Below, in pieces: positions 1 to 21,284 of a stretch of DNA of 60,222 bases. Source of the DNA: Candidatus Aceula lacicola. Its GTDB lineage: Bacteria; Omnitrophota; Gorgyraeia; Zapsychrales; Aceulaceae. Below the pieces are notes generated by a model. That model did not search any database. It saw only the letters and a list, made by a program, of their open reading frames with translations, and was not told where the DNA came from. The stretch covers positions 1-60,222 of the forward strand of contig JAVCCC010000008.1 of the NCBI GenBank assembly GCA_030765785.1. The letters are read 5' to 3'. A program made the translations under genes and the position numbers. Within the stretch, counting starts at the first letter, position 1; each line of letters starts with the position of its first letter.

Positions 1-1884
1 CCCCAATTCTTCCAACTGCTCCCAGCGTTCAAAGACAACAAGAAGTTCATCTTCAACCTCCTCTAGCTTTGCTTTAGTTTGAGCAATTTCCGTAGCTTCT
101 TTTTTATAAAAATCACCATCCGCTAAAAGGACATAAAGCTCCTCTCGCGTGGCTTCAAGCTTTTCGATCTTCGCCACTAAAGATTCCAACTCACGCTTCT
201 CTTTAAAAGAGCGCTTGCGAGGGGCAGCAGATTTATTCTCCTTCACGATCAATTTCTTTTTACCTTTGGGCTTACCTGCTACCGCAACAGGTTGACGCTG
301 TCTCAACCAATCGTCATATCCACCGGGGTACTCATAAATCTCCCCTTCACCTTCAACAACAATCGTTGATGTGACGACATTGTTTAAGAAAACACGATCA
401 TGGCTTACCAGAATCAATGTGCCGGAATACTCCATCAAAAGTTCTTCAAGCAGTTCCTGAGTTTCAATATCCAAATCATTGGTAGGCTCATCCATCACCA
501 AAAAATTAGATGGCTTCGTAAACAGGCGTGCTAAAAAGATACGGTTACGCTCACCGCCTGAAAGGACTTTAATCGGTGTTCGCGCCCTGTCAGGAGTAAA
601 TAAAAAATCCTGCAAATAACTAATAGCATGCCGCGGCTTTCCATTGATCGTCAGCATATCTCCGCCTTGAGCGACATTCTCAATCACCGTCTTTTCTTCA
701 TCTAATTGCTCCCGCAATTGATCATAATAAAGCACTTCTAAATTTGTACCCAAACGGACAACGCCGTCGTCCGGCTTCAATTGACCTAAAAGAATGCGCA
801 GTAATGTTGTTTTACCGCTGCCATTAGCGCCGATCACGCCTATTTTATCTCCACGCATTATTTTGGTCGAAAAATCACGAACGATGCAGTCATCTCCATA
901 GCTAAAATTTAAATGCTCAGCCTTAACAACCAAGCGTCCAGAATTCCCTGTTTCCTGCGCCTGAATGCGCGCCTGACCAATTACCTCGCGCTGAGCTTTT
1001 TTCTCCTCACGTAAACATTCAAGCGCGCGAACACGCCCTTCATTACGCGTACGTCTTGCCTTGATGCCTTTACGGATCCACACTTCTTCCTCGGCCAACT
1101 TCTTATCAAAAACAGCTCGTTGGGCTACCTCAGATTCTAGCGCTGCTTGTTTACGCTTTAGAAATGTTTGATAATCACATGACCAATTGAAAATTTTACC
1201 CCGATCAAGTTCCATAATTCTAGTAGATAAATTCATCATAAACTGACGATCATGCGTTACAAAAAATAAGGTCCCCGAATAATCTTTTAAAAACCCTTCC
1301 AGCCAGTCAATCGTTTCGATATCTAAATGATTAGTAGGTTCATCAAGAAGTAAAATCTCCGGCTTAATGACCAGCGCTTTAGCCAAAAGAACCCTACGCT
1401 TTTGCCCTCCTGATAAAGTCTCAAAATCCGCCTCTCCATTTAATTTCATATGAGAAAGCACATTCTCAACTTGAGAATCCAGATCCCAGCTGTTTGAATG
1501 ATCAATTTCAGCCTGCAAGCGATCAAGTTCACGCATCAGTTGTGCAGAATGATTAGTGTGCATGCGATGAAGAACGTGATGATAATCACTTAAGGTCTTG
1601 GCGCGATCTCCCAAACCTTCAAATACAATATCAAACACCATTCCTTTAATGCCGGAAGGAACTTCCTGCGGCAAATGTGTAACCTTAACACCTTTTTGAT
1701 AAATAATCTTACCACCAGTTACACCGATCTGGCCAGCCATCACTTTCATCAACGTTGTTTTACCAACGCCATTACGGCCAAGCAATGCAACCCGCTCACC
1801 CGGTTCTAGCTGCAAACTTACCTGATCAAATAATAACGGTCCGCCTAATGCGAGCGAAATTTCCTGTAAACTAATTAACGCCAT
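1..1884 (-). CDS. uup: ABC-F family ATPase, Uup-like (3' end runs off the window)
   Basis: Not in the ORF track. Minus-strand ATG at 1884 gives MALISLQEISLALGGPLLFDQ..LLGRNGVGKT; two ABC cassettes (LSGGQKRR/LLLDEPTNHLD and LSGGERNR/VMDEPTNDLD); ends ..FERWEQLEELG at base 1. SD-like AAGGA upstream. Confidence 0.9.
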   Translation of the reverse strand, partial: MALISLQEISLALGGPLLFDQVSLQLEPGERVALLGRNGVGKTTLMKVMAGQIGVTGGKIIYQKGVKVTHLPQEVPSGIKGMVFDIVFEGLGDRAKTLSDYHHVLHRMHTNHSAQLMRELDRLQAEIDHSNSWDLDSQVENVLSHMKLNGEADFETLSGGQKRRVLLAKALVIKPEILLLDEPTNHLDIETIDWLEGFLKDYSGTLFFVTHDRQFMMNLSTRIMELDRGKIFNWSCDYQTFLKRKQAALESEVAQRAVFDKKLAEEEVWIRKGIKARRTRNEGRVRALECLREEKKAQREVIGQARIQAQETGNSGRLVVKAEHLNFSYGDDCIVRDFSTKIMRGDKIGVIGANGSGKTTLLRILLGQLKPDDGVVRLGTNLEVLYYDQLREQLDEEKTVIENVAQGGDMLTINGKPRHAISYLQDFLFTPDRARTPIKVLSGGERNRIFLARLFTKPSNFLVMDEPTNDLDIETQELLEELLMEYSGTLILVSHDRVFLNNVVTSTIVVEGEGEIYEYPGGYDDWLRQRQPVAVAGKPKGKKKLIVKENKSAAPRKRSFKEKRELESLVAKIEKLEATREELYVLLADGDFYKKEATEIAQTKAKLEEVEDELLVVFERWEQLEELG

Positions 1885-1903: not shown

Positions 1904-3286
1904 TTAAGCTTTGCCAACTTTAAATTTTTTCCCTTTGATTTTAGCCGCGCTCAAACATTTAATGGCCATATCGATCTTATCGTTAGCAATGGCCACATAA
2001 CTATTCACTTCAAAAATATGGATCTTTCCAACTTCTTCGCCTTTAAGTCCCGCCTCTTTGGTCAAAGCGCCTAAAATATCGCCGGGACGTATATTATTTT
2101 TTCGGCCACCGCTAATATACATCGTTGACATTAATGAATGTAATTCCGTCGGCTTAAACTCTTGAAGCTCTTCCAATTTAATGATCGAACATTCCATTTT
2201 TAAATAATTACCGATCGTATCAAGCATAGCCTTCTCTTTATTAGCATACAGACTAAGCGCTAACCCTTTTTTGCCTGCGCGTCCTGTGCGCCCAATACGA
2301 TGAACATAAAGTTCATGATTGCGCGGTAAATCGTAATTAATAACCGCACTCACATCTTTCACATCAATTCCTCGAGAAGCCAGATCAGTCGCGACCAAAA
2401 TACGACAACTTTTATTATCAAACTTCGTTAGCGTTAGCGTCCTATCCTGCTGCTCCAAATCCGAATGGATCTGCAACGAATCCATTCTTAATGAACGCAA
2501 AAACTTTGCCACTTTATTACAGGTCACTCGGCTGTTACAAAAAATAATACAGGAATCTGGATTATAATGTCCCAACACACGAAGCAGCGCCGCGTTCTTT
2601 TCTTCGGCAACTTTAAAAAATAATTGCTCAACAGTGCTCATCTGATGCTGTGAATCGATCGTCACCTGCACGGCATCTTCCTGCAAATTAGCGCTCAATG
2701 TTTTAATGCCATTAGGCAGCGTCGCTGAGAACAGCATCGTTTGACGATCGATCGGAGTGAATGACGCAATGTGATCTATTTCATCGATCGTTCCCATTTC
2801 AAGCAAGCGATCAGCTTCATCTAATACCAGTATCTTAATGTCAGACATAACTAGCATTCCCTTGCTCAACAGTTTTGTAATACGCCCTGGCGTCCCGACA
2901 ATAATGTGAATACCCTGCTTCAACGACTTAATTTTATGTCGTTCTTCTGTTCCCCCCGATAATGTTAAAACTTTGATGTTGCTGGTGAACCTTGCCAAAC
3001 GGCGCGTCTCATTAGCCACCTGTTCCGCCAATTCACGCGTCGGAACGATCACAAGCGCCTGAGGATTGCTGTTGGTAACATCTAATTTAGCCAAAATGCC
3101 CAATGCAAATGCTGCTGTTTTACCGCTGCCGGTATTCGCTTGACCAATAAAATCCTTCCCGCTTAAAATATCTGGCAAACCTTTTTCCTGAATAGGCGTC
3201 ATTTCTACATATTCCAACGTCTTTAAATTATCAAGTATTGGCTTACTCAAACCTATATTTTTAAAATCTTTTGATGACTCACTCAT
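1904..3286 (-). CDS. dbpA: DEAD-box RNA helicase with DbpA-type C-terminal RNA-binding domain
   Basis: Q motif, TGSGKT, PTRELA, DEAD, SAT, HRIGRTGR; C-terminal ISGGRKNNIRPGDILGAL. Start moved to ATG 3286, which overlaps the upstream stop codon. Confidence 0.9.
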   Translation of the reverse strand: MSESSKDFKNIGLSKPILDNLKTLEYVEMTPIQEKGLPDILSGKDFIGQANTGSGKTAAFALGILAKLDVTNSNPQALVIVPTRELAEQVANETRRLARFTSNIKVLTLSGGTEERHKIKSLKQGIHIIVGTPGRITKLLSKGMLVMSDIKILVLDEADRLLEMGTIDEIDHIASFTPIDRQTMLFSATLPNGIKTLSANLQEDAVQVTIDSQHQMSTVEQLFFKVAEEKNAALLRVLGHYNPDSCIIFCNSRVTCNKVAKFLRSLRMDSLQIHSDLEQQDRTLTLTKFDNKSCRILVATDLASRGIDVKDVSAVINYDLPRNHELYVHRIGRTGRAGKKGLALSLYANKEKAMLDTIGNYLKMECSIIKLEELQEFKPTELHSLMSTMYISGGRKNNIRPGDILGALTKEAGLKGEEVGKIHIFEVNSYVAIANDKIDMAIKCLSAAKIKGKKFKVGKA

Positions 3287-4526
3287 TCTCTTTTTCCTTT
3301 TTTGCGGCTGCGGCACGCGCCTTATCTTTTTTGCTCATGCGCAACCCTTTGACAGGGGCATTGCCTTTTGCTTTCGGCAGCGGCTTCCCCGTTAATTCAA
3401 ACCCCTTAATAAATTCTCTCGGTAAGCGCATCCGCGTGCGCCTTTCAATTAATTTAAAATGCGCCTGACCTTCATGTCCAACAAAAGTTACTGCCGTTCC
3501 TTTTTCTCCGGCTCGTGCAGTGCGGCCAATGCGATGAATATAATCATCCGGCGAACGTGGAAGGTCATAATTAACAACATAGGGAAGTTTGTCGATATCG
3601 ATCCCGCGCGCGGCTAGATCAGTCGCGACCAGGGCATTAATATTTTTTTTCTTAAAGTCCGCTAGCACATCGGTTCGCTGCGCTTGAGTTAATCCGCCAT
3701 GAAAAGCTTCTGCGCGAATATTTGCCTTATTAAGTTTGGAAACCATAATATCCGCGTCTCTTGATCTTGCGACAAAAATCAAAACATGCTCCCATTTTTC
3801 TTCTTGAATCAAATGACGTAACAATGGTCCTCTGTTAGTATGATTGACTTCAATGACCCGCTGATGAATAGAATCAACGGTTGGAGTAGCATCTTCTATT
3901 TTGATCTCGACAGATTTCGGCATAAAATGCTGCACCAATGCCTTAACCTTTTCATTGATCGTCGCAGAAAATAATAAATTCTGCCGATTGTGAGGCAATA
4001 AATTCAGAACTAATTCAATTTCTTTAGAAAATCCAAGGTCAAACATCTTGTCGGCTTCATCAACAACCAAAAATCGAAGATCATCAAAATTAACTTCCTG
4101 ACGTCCCACAACATCTAATAGGCGCCCTGGCGTTGCCACAACAATATCGACGCCATGGATCAAGCTTCTTAATTGCACATTAATATTTGACCCACCAACG
4201 ATCAGCGCCGTCCGTTTCGGTTCAGCTAAATGCCGTCCATAGATCTTGATCGCACTACTAACCTGCCCAGCCAATTCACGCGTTGGTGTTAAAATAAGCT
4301 TTTTAATCGTTTTTCGCTTCTGATCAGGGTCTTCCTGCAATAACTGCAGCAGCGGCAATACAAAACTGGCTGTTTTACCAGTTCCGGTCTTTGCCTCGAC
4401 AATAACATCTTTCCCCTTAAGGATAAGCGGGATAGACTGTTCCTGGACAGCCGTTGGCTTCTGGTACCCAGCGTATTTAACAGCTCTCAAAAGATCTTCA
4501 GATAATCCTAATTTAGAAAATAACAT
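3279..4526 (-). CDS. DEAD-box RNA helicase, RhlE-like
   Basis: TGTGKT, PTRELA, DEAD, SAT, HRIGRTAR; basic C-terminal tail. Confidence 0.9.
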   Translation of the reverse strand: MLFSKLGLSEDLLRAVKYAGYQKPTAVQEQSIPLILKGKDVIVEAKTGTGKTASFVLPLLQLLQEDPDQKRKTIKKLILTPTRELAGQVSSAIKIYGRHLAEPKRTALIVGGSNINVQLRSLIHGVDIVVATPGRLLDVVGRQEVNFDDLRFLVVDEADKMFDLGFSKEIELVLNLLPHNRQNLLFSATINEKVKALVQHFMPKSVEIKIEDATPTVDSIHQRVIEVNHTNRGPLLRHLIQEEKWEHVLIFVARSRDADIMVSKLNKANIRAEAFHGGLTQAQRTDVLADFKKKNINALVATDLAARGIDIDKLPYVVNYDLPRSPDDYIHRIGRTARAGEKGTAVTFVGHEGQAHFKLIERRTRMRLPREFIKGFELTGKPLPKAKGNAPVKGLRMSKKDKARAAAAKKEKENE

Positions 4527-4533
4527 AGAAGAT

Positions 4534-4563
4534 ATAGTAGCTTAAACTATCGATTATGTACAA
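4534..4563 (-). promoter_or_regulatory. Putative sigma70 promoter of the helicase operon (leaderless)
   Basis: TTGTAC-18 nt-TACTAT, then 7 nt to ATG 4526; no SD. Confidence 0.55.
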
Positions 4564-4655
4564 CATATAAAAACACCCGCCTCCACGTCACTTACAAGGC
4601 TGATTTTGATATCCAATGGATATCCCTAGTTGGGCATTTAGCGCTTTAAAAAAAC

Positions 4656-4897
4656 TTACCTATGCACAGGTTGCTTTCTTGCATGTTTCAACTTCTTGTT
4701 TAATTTCTCAATAAAACTAATTATGCATACGCCAATAAAAATAAAAATCAAAATAACAAGCACAAAAAACTTCGTATATCACCTTTCGAAGTTTGCCTTA
4801 ATATCATCAATCAAATATTTTGAATACCCTTTTGCTTCCAAAATACTATCAAAACTACCATCAAAACAATTTCTAAAAATTACTAAACAAATTGAAA
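4656..4897 (-). pseudogene. 5'-truncated relic of a membrane-anchored protein with an in-frame TGA
   Basis: Frame reads ..FDGSFDSILEAKGYSKYLIDDIKANFER*YTKFFVLVILIFIFIGVCIISFIEKLNKKLKHARKQPVHR* (TGA at 4779-4781); no start codon before the repeat at 4898. Confidence 0.4.
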
Positions 4898-5001
4898 AGG
4901 CTCTATTTGGGCACCATTCATTTCACAAAATAAAAAGAACTCACAACTTATTGCTTAACAATATGTTATGAGCCCTTAGAATTTTCGTGGAGGTGCGGGG
5001 A
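4898..5001. repeat. 104-bp direct repeat, copy 1 (displaced ssrA 3' end plus downstream hairpin and arm site)
   Basis: Hand ungapped alignment to 6254-6357 gives 11 mismatches in 104 nt. The ssrA 3' end here reads TCCCCGCACCTCCACGA (CCA changed to CGA). Confidence 0.95.
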
Positions 5002-5133
5002 TACGATTAGCTTATTTTCCCTAACTCCTTTATTTTCAATGATATTGCTTAATTACCGTCGAGAAACGCTCTTCAAAAATTGTGCGAGGAGTTACATTTA
5101 GATACGCTGAAGTGCGAGGGTTTTGATGTGGGA

Positions 5134-5153
5134 TGGGCACCATTTGGGCACCA
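5134..5153. repeat. Tandem TGGGCACCA motifs (candidate tyrosine-integrase arm-type sites)
   Basis: Copies at 5134-5142 and 5145-5153; the same 9-mer occurs at 4908-4916 and 6264-6272; degenerate TTGGGCA at 4630-4636. Confidence 0.65.
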
Positions 5154-5154
5154 A

Positions 5155-6186
5155 TCAATAATCTAACACACCACCTGTTTTAAGCCTAATAATTCCCATT
5201 CCATCTGAAAATTCAGGCGTTGCTGTAACTTCATAGCCCTCTTCACTCAATTGACAGTCATAAACATATCCTAGAATAATCTGATCACACACTTCAAATC
5301 TTAAATTTAACTCCTCAATTTCAATGGGATATATATTTTTATTCGAATCTGCATAATTCTCAAAAGCAGATGAAAGCGTTCTCAACGTAGCTTTTGTCAT
5401 ATTTTGACTTTTCTCAAAAGACACCTTGCCAGTAAACGACCCTGTCTCCATCTGCTTTATCACCAACTCATCTATTTTCTCGGCAACAGAAACCATGGTG
5501 TCCCCAGCATTATTACTATCAAAATCTGCTAAAAAGCTATTCAATTTTTCTTTAAGGAATTGCATTTCTTCATCATTAACAGTTCCGTCATATTGATGAA
5601 TAATTTTTTCATTTTGAGCTTTTAATATTTTTAAAGCATTTCCTGGTTCAAGATTATTTTCAAGCTCTAACCAAAAGTTTTTATCATTAACGAGCTTTTC
5701 TAAAAATCCTATTGACTCCTGCCAATCAACCTCAGGATCATGATCTGAATTAAAAAGACTTGAAACGTTGTCACCTGTCATTGCTTCCGTCAACACGCTC
5801 ATTCCATGATTTATCATCCAGCTAGGATAATAATCAGGAGGAGGATTTCTTTTAGCCCAACTTACTGCATCTACTACTATTTCTTTATAAATTTTGGGAT
5901 GATACGCTGCCCATCTATAAATAGGAATAAAATTCTTATTGACTGTTAACCATGCCTGATGCGATGTCTTGTCAGCCACTCTTGTGATATCATATGTTGC
6001 ATATAGTCGAGCCTTCATTGCTAGTTCAGTGCCCTGTCTGGGGTCACCAGGAAACACTTCTAAAGCTTTCTCATAATAATTTATAAAAGTTGGAGATTCT
6101 TCGGCATAAACCCTGGCAAGATTAACTAAGCATAACACTAATAAAATAAAGCTTAAAAATAAATTTCTTAAATAAATTCTCTTCAT
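5155..6186 (-). CDS. Exported hypothetical protein with a pilin-like C-terminal domain
   Basis: Sec-type signal peptide (..LCLVNLARVYA|EE); C-terminal ATLRTLSSAFENY..YP..C..GY.YDC..GY.VTATP..TGG. AGGAG spacing favours ATG 6186 over 6192. Confidence 0.75.
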   Translation of the reverse strand: MKRIYLRNLFLSFILLVLCLVNLARVYAEESPTFINYYEKALEVFPGDPRQGTELAMKARLYATYDITRVADKTSHQAWLTVNKNFIPIYRWAAYHPKIYKEIVVDAVSWAKRNPPPDYYPSWMINHGMSVLTEAMTGDNVSSLFNSDHDPEVDWQESIGFLEKLVNDKNFWLELENNLEPGNALKILKAQNEKIIHQYDGTVNDEEMQFLKEKLNSFLADFDSNNAGDTMVSVAEKIDELVIKQMETGSFTGKVSFEKSQNMTKATLRTLSSAFENYADSNKNIYPIEIEELNLRFEVCDQIILGYVYDCQLSEEGYEVTATPEFSDGMGIIRLKTGGVLDY

Positions 6187-6253
6187 TATCATCTCCTTTT
6201 TAAATATCTTACCATATCTAAAAAGAATTTAAAATTATTATAATTCAATAAAT

Positions 6254-6357
6254 AGGCTCTATTTGGGCACCAATCGTTTTCAGAAATAAAAAAGGCTCAC
6301 AACTTATTGATTAACAATATGTTATGAGCCCTTAGAATTTTGGTGGAGGTGCGGGGA
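6254..6357. repeat. 104-bp direct repeat, copy 2 (includes the true ssrA 3' end)
   Basis: Aligns to 4898-5001. Confidence 0.95.
6285..6330 (-). terminator. Hairpin plus U-tract downstream of ssrA
   Basis: GGCTCA..AAC..ATTG / CAAT..GTT..TGAGCC imperfect stem followed by TTTTTTATT on the minus strand. Confidence 0.6.
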
Positions 6358-6736
6358 ATCGAACCCCGGTCCTTGGGATACCTAATAAAAGCCTCTACAT
6401 GCATAGTTTGTTTTTTGAACTTCGCTTTGATCACTTTAAACAAACAAACATTATCAAAACTAGCCTTTGAGTCTCACTTTGTCAACAAAGGCGATCAACA
6501 AAGCCAGCCTACTAAATGTCCTTTTTCAAAACCCGTAGACAAAATCTTGAAAAAGGGCCTTGCTTATTTAAGCAAGAACTGGTTCGCCAGCGAAGATTGG
6601 TTCAACAATCTCGTTAGCTTTCGCGATTAGGTTATCTGCGTTTATTATTTGCCTAGATATTTAACGAGGCCAACTAGACATCCTCGGCATGCCACCAATA
6701 TCGGGTGAAAACTCAAGTCGAAGCCTTGTCACCCCC
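6341..6736 (-). ncRNA. ssrA: tmRNA (one-piece)
   Basis: 5' GGGGGTGACAAGGCTTCGAC; 3' GGTTCGATTCCCCGCACCTCCACCA; pk1 stems CGAGG/CCTCG and TCTAG/CTAGG; tag frame 6639-6568; adjacent to smpB. Confidence 0.97.
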
Positions 6737-6827: not shown

Positions 6828-7292
6828 TTATCGATGAGACTGGTGGTTACGAACAGCTCTATCCACCTCTTTTTTGATATCACGCTTCTTTATCGTTTCA
6901 CGCTTATCAAAAAACTTTTTGCCTTTCGCAAGGCCGATTTCCACCTTAACAAAATTTCGAGCATTAAAATAAATTTTTGTTGGCACAAGCGTAAGACCTC
7001 GCTGTGTCATGCGCCCTAGAATCTTTTTAATTTCTTTTTTATGCAAAAGAAGCTTACGCTTTCTATCCGCATCAGAATTAAGATAGCTAGCCTGTAAATA
7101 CGGATTGATATAGAGACTGTAAAGATAGACCTCGTCGCCCTCGATGCGCGCAAAGCTATCTTTAAAGCTTATCCCTCCATCTCGAATCGACTTAACCTCG
7201 CTTCCGGATAAAGCAATGCCACACTCCCATCGCTCAACGATGAAATAATCACGAAATGCTTTTTTATTTGTCGAAGAAACTCTTTTTTCCAT
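6828..7292 (-). CDS. smpB: SsrA-binding protein SmpB
   Basis: NKKAFRDY, GIALSGSEVKSIR, RKRKLLLHKKEI, GKK.FDKRE; lies upstream of ssrA. Confidence 0.98.
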   Translation of the reverse strand: MEKRVSSTNKKAFRDYFIVERWECGIALSGSEVKSIRDGGISFKDSFARIEGDEVYLYSLYINPYLQASYLNSDADRKRKLLLHKKEIKKILGRMTQRGLTLVPTKIYFNARNFVKVEIGLAKGKKFFDKRETIKKRDIKKEVDRAVRNHQSHR

Positions 7293-8395: not shown

Positions 8396-9802
8396 ATGAC
8401 ACAACAAACACAACTCGCAATTATTGGAGCAGGTCCGGCTGGATATACCGCAGCTTTTTTAGCTGCAGATAAAGGGCTCAAAGTTACCCTGATTGATGCC
8501 ACTGGAAAATTAGGCGGCACCTGCCTTCATCATGGATGTATTCCGTCCAAAGCTCTTTTACATGTTGCTAAAATCATTTCAGGTGCTAAAAACGCGTCTG
8601 GAATAGGCGTCACTTTTGGTGAACCTTCCTTAGATTTTGAAAAAATTGCATCGTTTAAAGACAAAGTTATCGCACGGCTAAGCGGCGGACTCAATCAACT
8701 GCTTAAAAAACGCAGCATCACCCTTATTGAAGGCGCAGCAACATTCTCAAGTGAAACGTCTCTTGCTGTAAAAACAAAAGGCGAAACGATTACGCTTAAC
8801 TTTGAAAAATGTATTATTGCCACGGGCTCTCTACCAGCTAATCCTTTTGCTGATGCCCAAAAAGATGATCGTGTCATTTTCTCCGAACAAGCTCTAGAAC
8901 TAAAAACAATTCCTAAAAAAATTCTAATTATTGGTGGTGGATATATTGGACTTGAAATGGCAACTGTTTACTCAAACTTTGGCTCAGATGTAACAATTTG
9001 CGAACTTATGCCAACTCTTTTGCCAGGGGCCGACCAGGACATCATATCTGTGTTATCAAAAAAACTTTCTTTGACCTTGTCCAATATTTATACTTCAACA
9101 GCTGTCGAAAACTATCAACAAACAGATCAAGGTATCTTGGTTATTTTTGACGGACCTGAGGGAAAAATCTTTGAGGAAACTTTTGATCAGGTCCTTATTG
9201 CAACAGGGCGTGTTCCAAATACAGAAAACTTAAATCTTTCCAAAGCAAACATCCCTCTAGATGAAAACGGATTCATTAAGACTGATAAAAGCAATCAAAC
9301 TCCAGTTAAAAATATTTACGCTATCGGCGACGTAGCTGGCGGACTTCTTTTAGCACACAAAGCTTCGGATGAAGCCCATCGAATCATTGAATTTATTTTA
9401 AATCCATCTAACGATCAAGCTCAAGGCATTATTCCTTGCGTTGTTTTTACAGATCCAGAAGTTGCATGGTGCGGTTTAACTGAAGCTGAAGCCAAAGAAA
9501 AAAATATTGAAATCAAAATCTCTAAGATTCCAATGATGGCCAACGGTCGAGCTCTTGGCATTAATCAAACAGAAGGATTTACAAAATTAATCTTTGATTC
9601 TAAAATTAAAAATGTTATTGGGGCTGTCGTGGTCGGACCTGAGGCAGGAGAGCTTATCAGCTCGATTAGCATAGCTGCTCAAAATAAATTAACTGCAAAA
9701 CAACTCGCCGAATCCATATTTCCGCATCCGACGCTATCGGAAACACTAAAAGAATGTGCCCAAAGCTTTCTAGGCACTAATGCTCATTCTGTGAAGACTT
9801 AG
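8396..9802 (+). CDS. lpdA: Dihydrolipoyl dehydrogenase
   Basis: GAGPAGY, GGTCLHHGCIPSK redox disulfide, GGGYIGLE, HPTLSE. Confidence 0.95.
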   Translation: MTQQTQLAIIGAGPAGYTAAFLAADKGLKVTLIDATGKLGGTCLHHGCIPSKALLHVAKIISGAKNASGIGVTFGEPSLDFEKIASFKDKVIARLSGGLNQLLKKRSITLIEGAATFSSETSLAVKTKGETITLNFEKCIIATGSLPANPFADAQKDDRVIFSEQALELKTIPKKILIIGGGYIGLEMATVYSNFGSDVTICELMPTLLPGADQDIISVLSKKLSLTLSNIYTSTAVENYQQTDQGILVIFDGPEGKIFEETFDQVLIATGRVPNTENLNLSKANIPLDENGFIKTDKSNQTPVKNIYAIGDVAGGLLLAHKASDEAHRIIEFILNPSNDQAQGIIPCVVFTDPEVAWCGLTEAEAKEKNIEIKISKIPMMANGRALGINQTEGFTKLIFDSKIKNVIGAVVVGPEAGELISSISIAAQNKLTAKQLAESIFPHPTLSETLKECAQSFLGTNAHSVKT

Positions 9803-11315
9803 AAACTGGAAAGCGCAAATAAAATCGCACACCCTTCTCTTTTCCTTCCATATTCTCAACGCTAATGATGCCGCCATGATCTGAAATTAAATCTCGGCAT
9901 AACGCAAGGCCAATACCTGTTCCTTTTTCTCGATTTGATACAAACGGTTCAAAAATATATTGCATCTGCTCATCGGATAAAGTTGGCCCCGTATTCTCAA
10001 AGATGATAAAAACCTCATTAGCTGAAGAATCAAAACCAGAAATCATTTTGATATATCGTTTTTCTCCTTTAGGTAAATCACTCATAGCATCTAATGCATT
10101 AACAGAAATATTCATAAACATCTCTTGAAGATGTATTGCGTCAGCATACACTTTTGGAAGATTTTCTTCGCGATCAAAATCCCAGTTAACACGCTTAATG
10201 CGAAACTCATCTTTTAAAAGACGCAATGCACGATCTATGCAATCGTTAACATCAATATATTCTCTCTTAACTTCTTTGTGACGCATCAAGTCCATCAAGT
10301 CACTAAGCATTTCCTTAATATACGTTGACTGTTCAAAAATAAGATCAACCGTTTTATAATACGGATCGTCCTCTTTCATATCATTTCGCATAAACTTTAC
10401 AAGTCCATGCGTAGCTGTGATCGGCTGACAAATCTGATGCAAAATACCGGCTGAAAGAGAAGCAAAAATAGAAGCCTTACCAACATCCACAAGTTTAAGC
10501 TTTATCTCTTCAGCTTCTTGCTTGGCGGCCTCGGCCTCTACCCCTTTAAGACGCACTTCTGTGCCCATTTTTCGAATCTCAAGCAAGAATGAAACATTAT
10601 GATATTTTACAAGCGCATACGACATGATAACAATCGAAAAAAACAAACACAACGGTCCCAATGGATAAATACCGATACCATGATTATTAAGAATTGTAAC
10701 ATTGCTTAATGTTGTTAAAACAAAAGCTGCCATCACAAACTCTAGCTTCCGTCGGTACGAGAGGTCCGAACGTCGTCGCTGAGGAGATTTAATAAACTCA
10801 AAATAATGCCTAAGAATATTTAAAAGTGCGTACGTAAAACAAAAAAAGCTAAAAGCAAGAAAAACCCATTGCACACCTTGTGCTTTTGGGGAAAACCCCC
10901 ACGGATATTCGACGATGCCGGTAAAAAACGGATTCACCCAAGATTTGATTAAAAATAGAAAGACACCAAAATAAACTATCCAAAGAAAATATTTCTTTTT
11001 CTTATATTGATTGGTTACGACGATGGAGAGATGCAAAAGAGTTGCTGGAACCAAAACCATACTTAAAAAGATAACGCGTCCCCAAAAAAATGTCACAGAA
11101 TCAACCCACGCGCTTAAGCCAAGGGCAAATCCCAAAAACCAAAGCGCAGAACTCATATAAAAATAAAAAATAGATCGATGAAAGCTAAGACGCGTTCCTA
11201 GCCCTAAAACAAAAAGGGCAAAGAAAAACGCAATACTGAAAAAAACAAATGGAATCAGAGAAGAAATATTAAAATAATAATACGGTGATTGAATAATAGT
11301 TGAAAAATCTGTCAT
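9777..11315 (-). CDS. Membrane sensor histidine kinase with 7TM N-terminal domain; atypical H-box
   Basis: About 7 TM helices; H-box LHQICQP; N-box NISVNALDAM; F/G2 boxes IFEPF..GTGIGL. Confidence 0.85.
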   Translation of the reverse strand: MTDFSTIIQSPYYYFNISSLIPFVFFSIAFFFALFVLGLGTRLSFHRSIFYFYMSSALWFLGFALGLSAWVDSVTFFWGRVIFLSMVLVPATLLHLSIVVTNQYKKKKYFLWIVYFGVFLFLIKSWVNPFFTGIVEYPWGFSPKAQGVQWVFLAFSFFCFTYALLNILRHYFEFIKSPQRRRSDLSYRRKLEFVMAAFVLTTLSNVTILNNHGIGIYPLGPLCLFFSIVIMSYALVKYHNVSFLLEIRKMGTEVRLKGVEAEAAKQEAEEIKLKLVDVGKASIFASLSAGILHQICQPITATHGLVKFMRNDMKEDDPYYKTVDLIFEQSTYIKEMLSDLMDLMRHKEVKREYIDVNDCIDRALRLLKDEFRIKRVNWDFDREENLPKVYADAIHLQEMFMNISVNALDAMSDLPKGEKRYIKMISGFDSSANEVFIIFENTGPTLSDEQMQYIFEPFVSNREKGTGIGLALCRDLISDHGGIISVENMEGKEKGVRFYLRFPVSKSSQNEH

Positions 11316-11366
11316 TTTTAGAATTATAACACAAAAATTCCGAAAACTGCGTCCCTTTGCAAAGAA

Positions 11367-11804
11367 TTATTTTGTTTCTATTTTTATTTGTACTCCATCG
11401 CCTACATTAACATTATAAGCATCAGCAAATCCAGCATTAACTTCCAAGACATACTGTGCCAAATCATCCGTTCCATAAGTCGGACATGTTTCAGAAAAAC
11501 ATGGCGGGGCAGTCTTCTTAATATAAATAATTTCGCCAATGCTATTGAGCCAAATCATGTCTAGAGGAATAAGTGTATTTTTCATCCAAAACTTTGCCTT
11601 AGACGGTCCAGGAAAAACAAAAAGCATTCCCTTGCCTTTATCCAAACGTTCTCGATACTGCAGGCCTTCAGACAATTTCTCCGACGTTTGAGCAACTTCC
11701 ACTACAACGCACTTCGATTCAAAACACACTTTTGATACCTGGCCTTTGCACCCAATTATCAAACCGGACATTGCAACCAAGCCAATAATAAATACATGCC
11801 TCAT
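11367..11804 (-). CDS. DUF192 family lipoprotein
   Basis: Lipobox IIGC; GLQYRE.L..GMLFVF, FWMKNTLIPLDMIW, YVLEVNAG. Confidence 0.9.
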   Translation of the reverse strand: MRHVFIIGLVAMSGLIIGCKGQVSKVCFESKCVVVEVAQTSEKLSEGLQYRERLDKGKGMLFVFPGPSKAKFWMKNTLIPLDMIWLNSIGEIIYIKKTAPPCFSETCPTYGTDDLAQYVLEVNAGFADAYNVNVGDGVQIKIETK

Positions 11805-11805
11805 C

Positions 11806-13146
11806 TTACAATCCTTCCTTTTCTGTCAAACGAATATAATCGCGAAATGTCGTCTCCCCTGTAATTTCTTGATTAACCACTGAAATGCGTTGTGTTGTAG
11901 CCGGATGTGTTCTCCAATAGCTAAACCTACGTATCGGCTTTTTAGCATTAATCTCATGTAACTTCTCTAAAAACTTTTTCATTTCGTTAGGATCGTACCC
12001 AGCCTTTTCCATATACTTAACAGACAAACGATCCGCTAAAAACTCATCCTCTCTTGCATATCCTGTAAGAATAGATCCAAATGCCAAATTAATTCCTGGC
12101 GCCATGCTAGAATTTCCCGTCGTAATCGCCAAAACTTGAAGAAAATTATATCCATACTGAGCCTGCAAACTTTTCATTGCATGCTTCGCTGTAATATGAC
12201 CTATTTCATGAGCAATGACACCCGCAAGCTGATCATCATTATCTACCGCATCAACCAAACCTTTGTATAAATAAATAAATCCACCCGGAAGCGCAAAAGC
12301 GTTAACCTCATCTTTGTTAATCACCTGAACTGTATAAAAAATTTCTACACGGTCGCTTACATCTTCAATACGTTTTGCAATTCTTGATACACGCTCATTA
12401 ACATCAATATCTGTATTAATTTCATACTCTTTATTAATATATCGTGCGAGAGAATCTCCGATAGCAACTTCTTTTTCTGTACCAAAAAAAAGCGTTTCTT
12501 GCTGTTGTGTTGCTAAATTATATTCCGTTGTCATGCACCCTGAAAAATATACACATACTAAAAGCATTAAAATCTTTACGCCAAATTTTTTTAACATTTG
12601 TTTTAGTCGAACCATAGGAAGACCGACCACATTAAAATAACATCCCTCAATTCTTCGAATAAAAAATGCACCCCTGCCTTCAATATCAAATCCACCTGCC
12701 TTGCTCCCCGGTGGCGTAATCTTATAATAATTATCAATTTCTTGATCACTCAAGGGAGTCATATAAATTTTTGTTTTTTCAAACCCGACAGACTTCTTTT
12801 TTGTTTTAGCATCCACAATCGCTATTCCTGAATAAACCCAATGTGGATTTTGTGAAAGCATCTTTAAGCTTTTCTTTGCCTCTTTTAAATTCTTTGGTTT
12901 TCCAATAATTCTTTTACCCTTAGCATATACAAGTGTGTCAGATCCAATAACAATACCCTCTTTGAGACGCGATGAAACATCAAGCGCTTTTAAAAGTGCA
13001 TTTTTCTTAACAAGCACTGCACACCCTCTAGAGGAATCTGTATATTCTTTGACTTTACTTGAAATAACGTGAAACGGAATGCCTAATTTCTTAAGCAATC
13101 GTTTACGAGGAAATGACTGTGAGGCTAGTATTAACTTGAAATTCAT
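11806..13146 (-). CDS. Maf NTP pyrophosphatase fused to an M48 metallopeptidase
   Basis: Residues about 1-190 are Maf (LILAS, GSDT, KAGG.DIEG, NVVGLP), then KILMLLVCVYFSGC, then M48 (NAFALPGG, AHEIGH, EFLAD, THP). Single open frame. Confidence 0.9.
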   Translation of the reverse strand: MNFKLILASQSFPRKRLLKKLGIPFHVISSKVKEYTDSSRGCAVLVKKNALLKALDVSSRLKEGIVIGSDTLVYAKGKRIIGKPKNLKEAKKSLKMLSQNPHWVYSGIAIVDAKTKKKSVGFEKTKIYMTPLSDQEIDNYYKITPPGSKAGGFDIEGRGAFFIRRIEGCYFNVVGLPMVRLKQMLKKFGVKILMLLVCVYFSGCMTTEYNLATQQQETLFFGTEKEVAIGDSLARYINKEYEINTDIDVNERVSRIAKRIEDVSDRVEIFYTVQVINKDEVNAFALPGGFIYLYKGLVDAVDNDDQLAGVIAHEIGHITAKHAMKSLQAQYGYNFLQVLAITTGNSSMAPGINLAFGSILTGYAREDEFLADRLSVKYMEKAGYDPNEMKKFLEKLHEINAKKPIRRFSYWRTHPATTQRISVVNQEITGETTFRDYIRLTEKEGL

Positions 13147-17076: not shown

Positions 17077-18198
17077 TTAATATTGTTTACCGGCTATGCC
17101 AAGCCGACATATAATTTCATAATTTATTGTCTTTACAATTTTTGCTAAATCATCAGCCGTTACTTGATGCTTTCCTTGTTTTCCCATGACACAGACTTCA
17201 TCTCCAATGCTGACATCTTTAACTCGACTAACATCAACCATAATCTGATCCATGGTCACGTTACCGACAACAGGACATCGTTGACCGCGAATAATCACCT
17301 TAGCTTTATTAGAAAGACTTCTTAAGTATCCATCGTTATATCCGATAGAAACAGTAGCCACGCGCATCTTCTTTTTAGCAATAAATGTATGTCCATAACT
17401 AATGCCACGTCCTTTAAAAATATTCTTAATAAAACAAACCCGAGATTTCACGCTCATAACAGGCGTAAGATTAATTCTATTTCTCATTTTCCTCGATGGA
17501 TAAAGACCATAAAGCATTAATCCTGTGCGCGCGAGATTAAAACCCTGATGACTAAATACTGCAAGCCCTGCGCTATTCGCCGCATGCACGTATTTAATTG
17601 TTTTTATTTCTTTCTTCGCTTTATCAGCCAAACAAAGAATAGTTTTAATTTGCCTTTTAGTAAAACTATTGTCAATATCTGCCAGAGGAAAATGTGTGCA
17701 AAGCCCCTCAATCACAATTCCTGGCAAGCGCTCAACCTCTCGAATAAAATCAAATGCTTTTATCTGGCAAACACCAAGACGACCCATGCCCGTATCCACC
17801 TTGATATGAACCGGAACCTTTATTCTCTTTTTAACTGCTAAATTATTTAAGGCTTTGGCTAATTCTATCGTACAAAGAACAGGTGCAATATTATACTTTA
17901 TTAAATGTTTTGCATTTTTCGACAAAACATTTTCTAAAATCATAATGCGTTTTTTAATTCCTAAATTTCTAAGAACAATTCCTTCATTAATATCAGAAAC
18001 ACCAAAAAACTTAACATCTTGTTTGTTCAAAACTTTAGCAACTTTTTCTAATCCATGGCCATAAGCATTAGCTTTCACAACAGCCAAAATGCCTGTGTCC
18101 TTGCCGGCCAGCCGCTTAACAGCTTTCGCATTCGAAACAAGTGCTTTAGCATCTATCTCTGTCCATGCCATCGACGGACACATCGGCTTGCTTTTCAT
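17077..18198 (-). CDS. alr: Alanine racemase
   Basis: AVVKANAYGHG, HIKVDTGMGRLG, ISYG. Start placed at the ATGA overlap with the tsaB stop. Confidence 0.97.
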   Translation of the reverse strand: MKSKPMCPSMAWTEIDAKALVSNAKAVKRLAGKDTGILAVVKANAYGHGLEKVAKVLNKQDVKFFGVSDINEGIVLRNLGIKKRIMILENVLSKNAKHLIKYNIAPVLCTIELAKALNNLAVKKRIKVPVHIKVDTGMGRLGVCQIKAFDFIREVERLPGIVIEGLCTHFPLADIDNSFTKRQIKTILCLADKAKKEIKTIKYVHAANSAGLAVFSHQGFNLARTGLMLYGLYPSRKMRNRINLTPVMSVKSRVCFIKNIFKGRGISYGHTFIAKKKMRVATVSIGYNDGYLRSLSNKAKVIIRGQRCPVVGNVTMDQIMVDVSRVKDVSIGDEVCVMGKQGKHQVTADDLAKIVKTINYEIICRLGIAGKQY

Positions 18199-20247: not shown

Positions 20248-21284
20248 TTTTTAAGTAACCCAAAAATATTTTTTTTAACCGGCGAACGTAAAATTCCTTC
20301 TTCCGTTACAATTGCTGAAATCAGCTGATGAGGAGTAACGTCAAATGCAGGATTATATGTTTTTATACCCTTAGGTGCTATTTGATTTCTTGCAATATGA
20401 GTAATTTCCATCGATCCTCTTTGTTCGATTGGAATTTGTTTGCCAGTCTTGATATTCGCATCAAAAGTCGACTTTGGTGCAACGATATAAAATGGAACTT
20501 TATGATAATTGGCTAAAACCGCTAGGCCATATGTTCCAATCTTATTAGCTGCGTCTCCATTTAAAGCAATTCGATCAGCTCCAGCAAGAATCATATCGAT
20601 TTTTCCTTGAGCCATTAGCGTTGCGGCCATATTGTCACAAATCAGTGTTGTATCAATTTTCTCTCTAGACAATTCCCATGCAGTAAGTCGCGCTCCTTGC
20701 AAAAGAGGACGCGTTTCACATACATAAACTTTAAACTTTTTCTTTTTTTCTTTAGCCGAATACATAACGCCTAAAGCTGTTCCATAGTCAACAGTCGCAA
20801 GCGCACCTGCGTTGCAAACAGTCAAAAGCGTATCTCCATTCTTGATTAACGTTGCACCATAAGATCCCATCTTGCGACAAACACGCTTATCTCTCTCAGA
20901 AATTTCAAAAGCCTGACGTTTTAATTTTATGCGTAGTTGCGAGACGGTATCCTTTGGATTATCTATGACCACATTTTTCATACGCTCAAGCTCATTAAAT
21001 AAATTAACTGCCGTCGGTCGAGACGTAGCAATATAATCACAAATCTTCAAGAACTTTTGTTCAAATATTTTACGATTATTTGTCTTTATTTTCCGGATAC
21101 CAAGCAAAACACCAAAGCCGGCAGCAGCTCCAAGTGCTGGAGCACCGCGAACACTTAAAACCTTAATCGCTTTCCAAAGAGCCTTAACATCTTTGCAATT
21201 AATAAACGTAAGCTTACCGGGAAGCTTGGTTTGATCAACAATGCGAACACTATTATCAATCCATTTAATCGTTGGAATAGCCAT
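20244..21284 (-). CDS. mtnA: Methylthioribose-1-phosphate isomerase
   Basis: DQTKLP, VRGAPA, SRPTAVNL, CNAGALA, ETRPLLQGARLT, NKIGTY. Confidence 0.97.
   Translation of the reverse strand: MAIPTIKWIDNSVRIVDQTKLPGKLTFINCKDVKALWKAIKVLSVRGAPALGAAAGFGVLLGIRKIKTNNRKIFEQKFLKICDYIATSRPTAVNLFNELERMKNVVIDNPKDTVSQLRIKLKRQAFEISERDKRVCRKMGSYGATLIKNGDTLLTVCNAGALATVDYGTALGVMYSAKEKKKKFKVYVCETRPLLQGARLTAWELSREKIDTTLICDNMAATLMAQGKIDMILAGADRIALNGDAANKIGTYGLAVLANYHKVPFYIVAPKSTFDANIKTGKQIPIEQRGSMEITHIARNQIAPKGIKTYNPAFDVTPHQLISAIVTEEGILRSPVKKNIFGLLKK

Follow-up and report, generated by a model that had tools for sequence, protein, structure and literature searches.

What lies behind ssrA, the transfer-messenger RNA (tmRNA) gene, in Candidatus Aceula lacicola, a low-GC member of the candidate phylum Omnitrophota? 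In the window, by which we mean the whole 60,222-nucleotide stretch of contig JAVCCC010000008.1 that was analyzed (GC content, 37.8%), the intact gene is followed by a unit of ~1.36 kb that carries a single gene and ends in a displaced copy of the ssrA 3' end. We call this unit M1; read on the ssrA strand, it extends from position 6340 down to 4985 (Table 1). Our analysis indicates that M1 is probably, in a broad sense, an att-flanked unit without an integrase that belongs to a family of tyrosine-integrase islands and resembles a cis-mobilizable element (CIME). M1 has the anatomy of such a unit, its arms are homologous to those of islands in other species, its sites link it to one integrase family, and it forms part of a tandem array.

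Anatomy of the one-gene unit M1

M1 is bordered by a 104-bp direct repeat (4898-5001 and 6254-6357), the two copies of which align without gaps and differ at exactly 11 positions; their longest exact run is 31 nt, and a weaker likeness around them reaches 4860-5006 and 6216-6362. A sequence-only reading of this DNA had given the repeat these coordinates and this number of mismatches, and its other anatomical details were borne out as well: both copies contain the ssrA 3' end back into the T-loop, a hairpin, and a TGGTGCCCA site; the word GTGCGAGG occurs at 5082 and 5112; the 15-mer ATTTGGGCACCAATC stands on both sides of the single open reading frame (ORF), at 5142-5156 and 6261-6275; and the stop codon of that ORF (5155-6192, minus strand) overlaps the first 15-mer. 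In each repeat copy the hairpin has an 18-bp stem followed by a U-run, with free energies of -27.3 kcal/mol (6291-6333; z = -5.5) and -26.8 kcal/mol (4935-4977; z = -4.0).

The inserted DNA begins directly past the CCA end of ssrA, which is regenerated intact. The end of the gene forms one core (core0), and the displaced copy at the far end (core1) agrees with it at 19 of 22 positions, its scars being a change of CCA to CGA and a 2-nt change in the T-loop part. Between core0 and core1, identity runs for 14 nt, is interrupted by a single mismatch, and resumes for 31 nt. The word TGGGCACCA occurs four times in 60 kb, at 4908, 5134, 5145, and 6264, all inside the locus; the chance expectation is 0.2, and none of 100 shuffled sequences reached four. 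The M1 sites lie at +69 from the ssrA end and at -128 to -147 from the distal core, and the arm next to ssrA also holds a degenerate second site, TAGAGCCTA.

Table 1. Features of the ssrA locus, in window coordinates, ordered along the ssrA strand
Feature	Position	Strand	Evidence or remarks
smpB, upstream neighbor of ssrA	6828..7292	-	Pfam SmpB, E = 5.8e-56
ssrA (tmRNA gene), intact	6341..6736	-	ARAGORN; Rfam RF00023, 179.9 bits, model positions 1-374 (full length)
core0, last 22 nt of ssrA; attL core	6341..6362	-	TCGATTCCCCGCACCTCCACCA
ssrA-proximal (P') arm of M1	6254..6340	-	terminator hairpin 6291-6333 and U-run, arm site, degenerate second site
Site in the P' arm of M1	6264-6272	+	TGGTGCCCA; TGGTGCCCAAATAGAGCC on the ssrA strand
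Cargo leader of M1	6193..6253	-	AT-rich putative promoter region and ribosome-binding site AAAGGAG; read from sequence
Cargo ORF of M1	5155..6192	-	345 amino acids (343 from the second ATG)
Arm-site doublet of M1, 11-nt period	5134..5153	-	TGGTGCCCAAATGGTGCCCA; TTGGTGCCCAAATGGTGCCCAT on the ssrA strand; overlaps the cargo stop codon
P arm of M1, doublet to core, 127 bp	5007..5133	-	CCTCGCAC twice, TCTCGACGGTA, ATTGAAAATAAAGGAG
core1, displaced scarred ssrA 3' end; attR of M1, attL of M2	4985..5006	-	TCGTATCCCCGCACCTCCACGA
P' arm of M2	4898..4984	-	terminator hairpin 4935-4977; site TGGTGCCCA at 4908-4916, plus strand
AT-rich noncoding spacer inside M2, ~370 bp	4527..4897	.	no recombinase-like reading frame
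M2 cargo, DEAD-box helicase	3279-4526	-	Pfam
M2 cargo, DbpA-type helicase	1904-3316	-	Pfam
M2 cargo, ABC-F ATPase, cut by window edge	1-1884	-	Pfam

The unit was proposed to lack an integrase, and it does: the single ORF of M1 is not a recombinase, and profiles built on cognate integrases found no tyrosine-recombinase-like ORF in the window, in the 10 kb beyond its start, or in L221, an extended copy of the locus that was reached by exact-protein look-up. Six-frame translation and profile searches of 4527-5160 likewise gave no integrase remnant. For the other 48 ORFs of the window, the Pfam scan is represented by the best 25 of 109 families. A search with the 18-mer ATGTAACTCCTCGCACAA returned six chance matches in one metagenome scan, which also missed the window species itself, and no match in viral contigs; the ssrA core was found in more than 120 viral contigs, which share only the 25-nt core.

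The cargo ORF begins with a signal-like hydrophobic segment, and its predicted product is best described as a secreted or envelope protein. It had no Pfam or PHROG match, and a word-based search returned only the protein itself. An exhaustive HMMER search recovered 98 distant relatives, the best at 42% identity, and Pfam searches with ten of these gave nothing informative. The last ~90 amino acids are a separate domain that is present in many small proteins and also in the ORF directly after the integrase gene of an island in a sister species (L223; 36% identity, E = 3e-10). A single-sequence AlphaFold2 model of the cargo was unusable (predicted local distance difference test score, 43.6), and the cargo gene was absent from all RNA runs. 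The candidate explanation that the cargo is a disguised integrase was rejected (BLASTP E = 6.2).

Could the locus have formed with no mobile element at all? A direct repeat would also result if the ssrA terminator region had been duplicated locally in tandem or had undergone unequal crossing-over, or if the assembly were in error, and such an origin would fit both the extent of the copies, which include 85 nt downstream of ssrA and so exceed a plain duplication of an att core, and the breaks of Logan unitigs at the 29- to 31-nt exact repeat. The copies, however, have diverged at 11 of their 104 positions, the arm between the gene and the core is homologous to the end arms of ssrA islands in other species (L011 and L235), and a third arm with its core lies 6.6 kb away. 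The repeat is also no assembly artefact, a danger that the sequence-only reading had itself raised, because at least five independent assemblies (L001-L004 and L221) show one and the same sequence for the locus and contig depth is even (38.5, 41.1, and 39.8 in run X1, with the repeat locus level with its flanks). An origin of this kind is therefore barely credible. The window stretch was present in at least 24 runs labeled "salt lake metagenome," and M1 was carried by every assembly of the window population.

Integrase-bearing islands at the same target

A search with SmpB placed metagenome-assembled genomes (MAGs) of Omnitrophota as the top relatives of the window genome, and the order lpdA-Mem_trans-smpB-ssrA was conserved in all Omnitrophota relatives. 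A helicase annotated from Candidatus Aceula meridiana, a taxon whose description comes from Ace Lake, Antarctica (PMC8542988), shares 94% identity with the DEAD-box helicase of the window. Contigs of relatives, both MAG and Logan, stop within 1 to 2 bases of the ssrA 3' end (L005 at 8905, L008 at 8877, and L226 at 1786), which fits strain-variable DNA behind ssrA that breaks assemblies.

Complete-type islands of 9 to 11 kb that encode one kind of integrase lie behind ssrA in the two nearest relatives identified and also in other Omnitrophota. In the sister species (SmpB 84% identical), for which the species collection has contigs that break off exactly at the 3' end of ssrA (L005), contigs L223 and L225 carry ssrA, a doublet (TGGTGCCCAAACGGTGCCCAT) at ~+73, an ORF6N anti-repressor-like gene, and a gene for a 343-amino-acid tyrosine integrase, and the island genes run on for more than 7 kb past the integrase. 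The same arrangement, with the doublet TGGTGCCCAGATGGTGCCCAT at ~+73, occurs in L242, whose tmRNA tag is nearly identical to that of the window (ADNLIAKANEIVEPIFAGEPVLA); across these relatives, more than 7 to 11 kb of island lies past the integrase gene. The integrase contains the Pfam domains Phage_int_SAM_5 and Phage_integrase, matches PHROG 1 (E = 5e-73), and belongs to a family of 879 proteins at E < 1e-20. Seven integrase genes were looked up in their genomic context: five clusters stood directly behind smpB-ssrA (L223, L235-238, L239, L242, and L244), and the other two (L246 and L247) stood behind tRNA-Ser(tga), with GTGCCCA doublets at ~+75. The ssrA 3' end of the window is the same target as that of the complete-type islands in L223, L242, L235, L239, and L244. 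Our literature searches found no description of this integrase family or of its arm-site motif.

Two islands, those of L235 and L244, were available at full extent for a comparison of geometry. The L235 island spans 8.7 kb (ssrA end at 9237, right-arm doublet at 17764, core at 17912), and the L244 island spans 11 kb (distal core at 20879). In both, the doublets lie 75 to 95 nt past the end of the tDNA (the tRNA or tmRNA gene) and ~150 nt ahead of the distal core, and the spacing of the M1 sites, at +69 and -128 to -147, fits this geometry. In the L239/L244 subfamily, both arm doublets read TGCTACCAAAATGCAACCA instead. Because the positions are kept while the sequence changes with the integrase subfamily, the doublets and the TGGGCACCA words behave as arm-type sites, as the sequence-only reading had supposed, and the GGTGCCCA doublets are most likely sites of this type that are bound by the N-terminal domain of the integrase. 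The homology of the arms and their common layout with complete islands likewise support its suggestion that the repeats are att junctions of an ssrA-targeting tyrosine-integrase island family.

Several observations made in passing concern these sites. A reversed doublet, GGGCA..GGGCACC, lies just upstream of an excisionase-like HTH_17 gene in L223 (18555-18575) and L247 (16071-16090), which suggests that the arm-site-binding protein may also regulate that gene. In unrelated phage contigs of IMG/VR (L096, minus strand, from 29; L099, 2311-2560; and L093/095), GGTGCCCA doublets flank attP cores that resemble tRNA 3' ends, and the integrases encoded beside them belong to the same wider family; the final codons of the L099 integrase gene themselves contain one of the doublets. 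A 17,751-nt contig of run X1, with a depth (37.4) the same as that of the window genome, contains pieces that match window positions 5013-5038 and 5120-5155 and joins a doublet and core-proximal arm to GCCCTATCGAATCCTTCTTTCTCCGCCA, which resembles a tRNA-Ser 3' end; a sister element probably occupies tRNA-Ser in the window genome. In L224, a further sample of the sister species, ssrA is followed by different DNA, so the site is polymorphic in that species. The sequence found there (L224, 10924-11100) is shared with L016 (5668-5840). Besides a terminator, it contains TTCTCGACGA, ATTACAAGTTAAA, and GTGGTGAAAGTGTG, and in L016 the DNA beyond it is an element that encodes a serine recombinase and a type I methylase; this ssrA site is therefore also the target of a second family of elements, unrelated to the first.

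The arm of M1 that runs from the doublet to the core recurs outside this species. It is 78% identical over 176 nt (E = 2e-28) to an arm in L011, where, as in L227 (SmpB 62% identical), the arm ends a 2.7-kb stretch behind ssrA that lacks an integrase. An nhmmer profile of the arm identified five independent copies, namely, those of M1, of M2 (the unit that follows M1), of L011, of the right end of the integrase-bearing L235 island, and of a small unit adjoining that island. The right arm is ~180 bp long, and conservation across all five P arms peaks at the doublet. Four full-length arms share the doublet, TCGACG-TA-TT, ATTGAA, and the core, and the shorter arm of the L235 mini-unit retains only the doublet, a GTCGACGAG block, and the core.

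This segment of ~180 bp might instead be read as an outward promoter with a leader, or as a small RNA with a tmRNA-like acceptor end. Promoter-like hexamers occur in it (TTGACT, a 17-nt spacer, and TAATAT in the L221 copy; TATAAT in L011), an AAAGGAG block stands just ahead of the core, and its conservation is patchy, as would be expected for binding sites. On the other hand, the -35 element of the M1 copy is poor, with none listed there on the minus strand, and no conserved ORF follows the AAAGGAG block. Every copy, moreover, terminates in the 3' end of a tDNA and marks the distal border of an insertion, and one such border belongs to an integrase-bearing island. As a known RNA family the arm was rejected, since it had no Rfam match. 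We consider a regulatory or RNA module very unlikely and continue to treat the segment as an att arm.

The one-gene architecture recurs with a different gene in L235 and probably also in L011, which supports the sequence-only reading. The complete L235 island gives way to core1, a terminator hairpin of 18 bp and its U-run, TTTAGTGCCCAAATAGCGTCTATTATTTG (containing the site TAGTGCCCAAATAGCGTCTATT), and one gene, which encodes an alpha/beta-hydrolase and has the doublet, in TTTGGTGCCCAAACGGTGCCCATCG, within its last 13 codons; a short arm, core2, and a native-looking terminator complete this mini-unit, which has no integrase. The P' arm site of M1 and its right flank, GTGCCCAAATAGnGnCTATT, recur at the same place in the L235 mini-unit. 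The left arms of complete islands are unlike this arrangement of terminator and site, in that they combine a promoter-like TTGACA-N17-TAATAT with a full doublet. In L011 and L227, a GIY-YIG gene and a gene for a 665-amino-acid secreted protein each end at GTGCCCA sites.

Two further loci were noted. L014 contains, at 10431-12123, a 1.7-kb unit between two ssrA ends with one Fic-domain gene and TGGTGGTCA doublets in both arms; a candidate frameshifted integrase remnant in this locus (LLLTGRR ... GHKDVEIFVKHY) was recognized by eye only and had no Pfam match. In L009 (6500-6693), the ssrA end and a 17-nt trailer are repeated 135 bp downstream with no gene between, and the contig ends 35 nt farther on.

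A tandem array with a second unit, M2

Past core1 the ssrA strand enters M2, whose P' arm is ~89% identical, without gaps, to window positions 6254-6340. Beyond the helicase and ABC-F genes of the window, M2 continues with MazG-like and RsmH genes and then a third doublet (TTGTGCCCAAATGGTGCCCAT), a homologous P arm, and core2 (CTAATCGTATCCCCGCGCCTCCACCA). These lie at 11537-11718 of L221, 6.6 kb beyond M1 and ~1.7 kb outside the first base of the window. Because a third doublet, arm, and ssrA-end copy follow rsmH, the block of helicase, ABC-F, MazG, and RsmH genes is bracketed by att-type junctions. The array reads, in order, ssrA, M1 (1.36 kb), core1, M2 (6.8 kb, five genes), core2, and old flank. 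After core2 come orf157 and a gene for an LpxL-like acyltransferase, which marks the old flank, since an LpxL homologue is the ssrA-side neighbor in L006 and L007. The proposal of two related units in tandem is thus upheld, with the array extending to a third arm and core outside the window. Its scale had been overstated, with only two units stacked and the second of them 6.8 kb long with five genes.

The cores point to where the exchange took place. Upstream of the identity block, core1 and core2 both have CTAATCGTAT, where the true ssrA reads GGTTCGATT. This is expected if the part to the left of the crossover comes from attP, and the exchange therefore falls within CCCCGCACCTCCAC.

No relative has any of the five genes between core1 and core2 in the neighborhood of ssrA. 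Ranked by GC content, both DEAD-box helicase genes and the ABC-F gene fall in the top four of the 58 window ORFs (helicases and ABC-F, 0.41 to 0.43; mean of the 58 ORFs, 0.378; standard deviation, 0.024). In a contig of Candidatus Aceula meridiana (L250), 94% identity to the window starts at position 4370, corresponding to about window position 4580, 54 nt upstream of the helicase, and is preceded by unrelated genes (an SNase-domain gene and small ORFs). Because homology to L250 stops ~54 nt upstream of the helicase, a recombination breakpoint lies inside the AT-rich spacer.

These features suggest the following model. An element whose attP comprised the doublet, right arm, core, terminator, and site would have recombined with the ssrA 3' end within CCCCGCACCTCCAC, regenerating ssrA and displacing its old end, and insertion at least twice would give the gene order described above. 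The left arm would provide ssrA with a new transcription terminator, together with one and a half GGTGCCCA sites; M1 would supply this terminator because the insertion separates ssrA from its own. M1 could then move only by means of an integrase from elsewhere or together with a neighboring element. Excision by an integrase acting in trans is formally possible, given the identity of core0 and core1 over 14 nt and then 31 nt around a single mismatch; after a crossover to the left of that mismatch, however, ssrA would end in CGA. M1 is probably fixed at present, because its distal core is scarred and every assembly of the population carries the unit.

Precedents, origin, and significance

How does M1 compare with systems that have been described? 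CIMEs are att-flanked elements without recombination genes (PMC5704250), and M1 has attL and attR flanks and no integration or transfer genes. In Streptococcus, the CIMEs that take part in accretion with the ICESt1 family are likewise att-flanked, lack integration and transfer genes, and stand in tandem at the 3' end of a conserved gene; there, as between M1 and M2, a chimeric att site separates the units (PMC5704250). The described CIMEs, however, are regarded as multi-gene decay products of either ICEs (integrative and conjugative elements) or IMEs (integrative and mobilizable elements), whereas M1 is 1.36 kb long, contains one gene, has a recurrent left arm of its own with a terminator for the target gene, and comes from an uncultivated phylum, and the M1/M2 array includes no complete element.

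Among published systems at this target gene, the nearest is the array of ssrA-specific genomic islands (ssrA-GIs) of Dehalococcoides, in which tandem arrays at ssrA contain many units without an integration module that have been proposed to be cis-mobilizable (PMC3146451). In both systems, direct repeats of the ssrA 3' end bound the units and a conserved motif lies just upstream of the repeats. The Dehalococcoides system differs in its serine recombinase DsiB, six-gene module, 20-bp repeats, and units of several kb with rdhA (PMC3146451), whereas the family described here has a tyrosine integrase and lambda-type arm sites. The islands cataloged by Islander and TIGER (PMC4383910, PMC12424338) integrate at tDNA 3' ends, regenerate the gene, leave a displaced fragment at the far end, and form tandem arrays. 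M1 shares the insertion at a tDNA 3' end and the displaced repeat. That class is nonetheless defined by an internal integrase gene, and neither M1 nor M2 has one.

The sequence-only reading had likened the locus to an integron-style cassette array, which holds as an analogy only, the M1 sites being lambda-type arms around a tDNA core and not attC hairpins. Integron cassettes are similarly small, mostly one-gene units that end in a recombination site and are inserted at a fixed chromosomal point by an external recombinase. Their attC sites, in contrast, are imperfect palindromes recombined as folded single strands, and M1 has a lambda-type arm and core; the integron integrase adjoins the array and the cassettes are mostly promoterless, whereas the M1 cargo has its own leader, a terminator ahead of it, and no adjoining integrase. 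No attC was found in M1, where the sole strong hairpin is the terminator with its U-run, and neither IntI nor attI was found. Integrative mobile elements exploiting Xer (IMEX), such as CTX-phi and TLC-phi, also lack a recombinase of their own and integrate, often in tandem, at dif by means of the host housekeeping recombinases XerCD; in the present case that role would fall to an island-borne integrase, with ssrA as the site. Integrase-less islands are already known, and what is novel here is the very small one-gene unit with its recurrent terminator-bearing left arm.

Might M1-type units then be more than remnants? They could constitute a dedicated class of miniature nonautonomous elements, not decay products, each a single gene that has a promoter of its own and an attP of ~270 bp (a doublet, an arm, the core, an ssrA terminator, and a site). 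A resident or visiting island would supply, in trans, the integrase that captures these elements and stacks them at ssrA; such a class would be an ssrA-anchored analogue of integron cassettes or IMEX elements. The same layout with unrelated cargo in three lineages (the window, L235, and L011/L227) speaks for this, as do a left-arm type of their own, with the GTGCCCAAATAGnGnCTATT block common to the window and L235 and a different left arm in complete islands, and the position of the cargo stop codon, which in four units touches or overlaps the doublet. The doublets of M1 and M2 are identical while the ~60 nt that follow have diverged beyond recognition, which suggests that the sites are under selection; the M1 arm is nearer to that of another species (78%) than to the sister arm in its own genome, and the L235 mini-unit adjoins a complete island with matching sites. 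Yet only three to five units are at hand, no identical cassette was found across two hosts or array positions, and the cores are scarred. The one-gene Fic unit of L014, with its probable integrase remnant (seen by eye, no Pfam match), would imply that decay can yield such units, and the presence of the C-terminal cargo domain beside the sister-species integrase fits descent from a complete island. Decay also has precedents in the CIMEs (PMC5704250) and in the Dehalococcoides ssrA arrays with units that lack integration modules (PMC3146451). On balance we find a dedicated class doubtful.

The reading of M1 as a CIME-like unit of the island family must itself be weighed against several points. 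The earlier reading had set itself against a full-length island in relatives of which M1 would be a simple deletion remnant. Such islands are present at the same site, but M1 is not their simple deletion derivative, since its cargo differs and its ssrA-proximal arm is of a different, recurrent type. The difference between that arm, with its terminator and site, and the promoter and doublet of complete islands counts against simple decay. For M2, the DEAD-box orthologues show graded identity across Omnitrophota, a related MAG has the DEAD-box/ABC-F pair on another contig with unrelated neighbors and no att-like sequence, and the genes look like vertically inherited core genes. M2 may accordingly be a chromosomal segment moved by att-site recombination and not a classical island. 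The mobility of M1, furthermore, was judged from contigs alone, binding of the integrase to the doublets is deduced from their position, periodicity, and co-variation, and the search for a cognate integrase covered the window and 10 kb beyond its start. With these points considered, we still regard membership in the island family, in the broad sense given at the outset, as probable.

A more far-reaching idea is that Omnitrophota, and perhaps other small-genome phyla, possess an ssrA-anchored gene-capture system in which single genes with a portable attP of ~270 bp are inserted, stacked, and exchanged in trans by the island-borne 343-amino-acid integrase, which would occasionally also move chromosomal blocks such as that of the helicase, ABC-F, and RsmH genes. 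We offer this as speculation that is unlikely to hold in full.

The finding gives an uncultivated phylum a concrete and testable recombination system, defined by an integrase family, probable arm sites (GGTGCCCA doublets with an 11-nt period), the spacing of those sites, and a core that consists of the last ~16 nt of ssrA or, for the sister integrases, of tRNA-Ser. With the arm model, island boundaries can be drawn in Omnitrophota MAGs, whose contigs often break exactly at ssrA (L005 and L008). Were decay the whole explanation of the units, the locus would be a well-resolved but ordinary case of traffic at the tmRNA gene. Movement in trans would rank them with the smallest known site-specific integrative elements and would offer streamlined genomes a simple route by which to sample single accessory genes.

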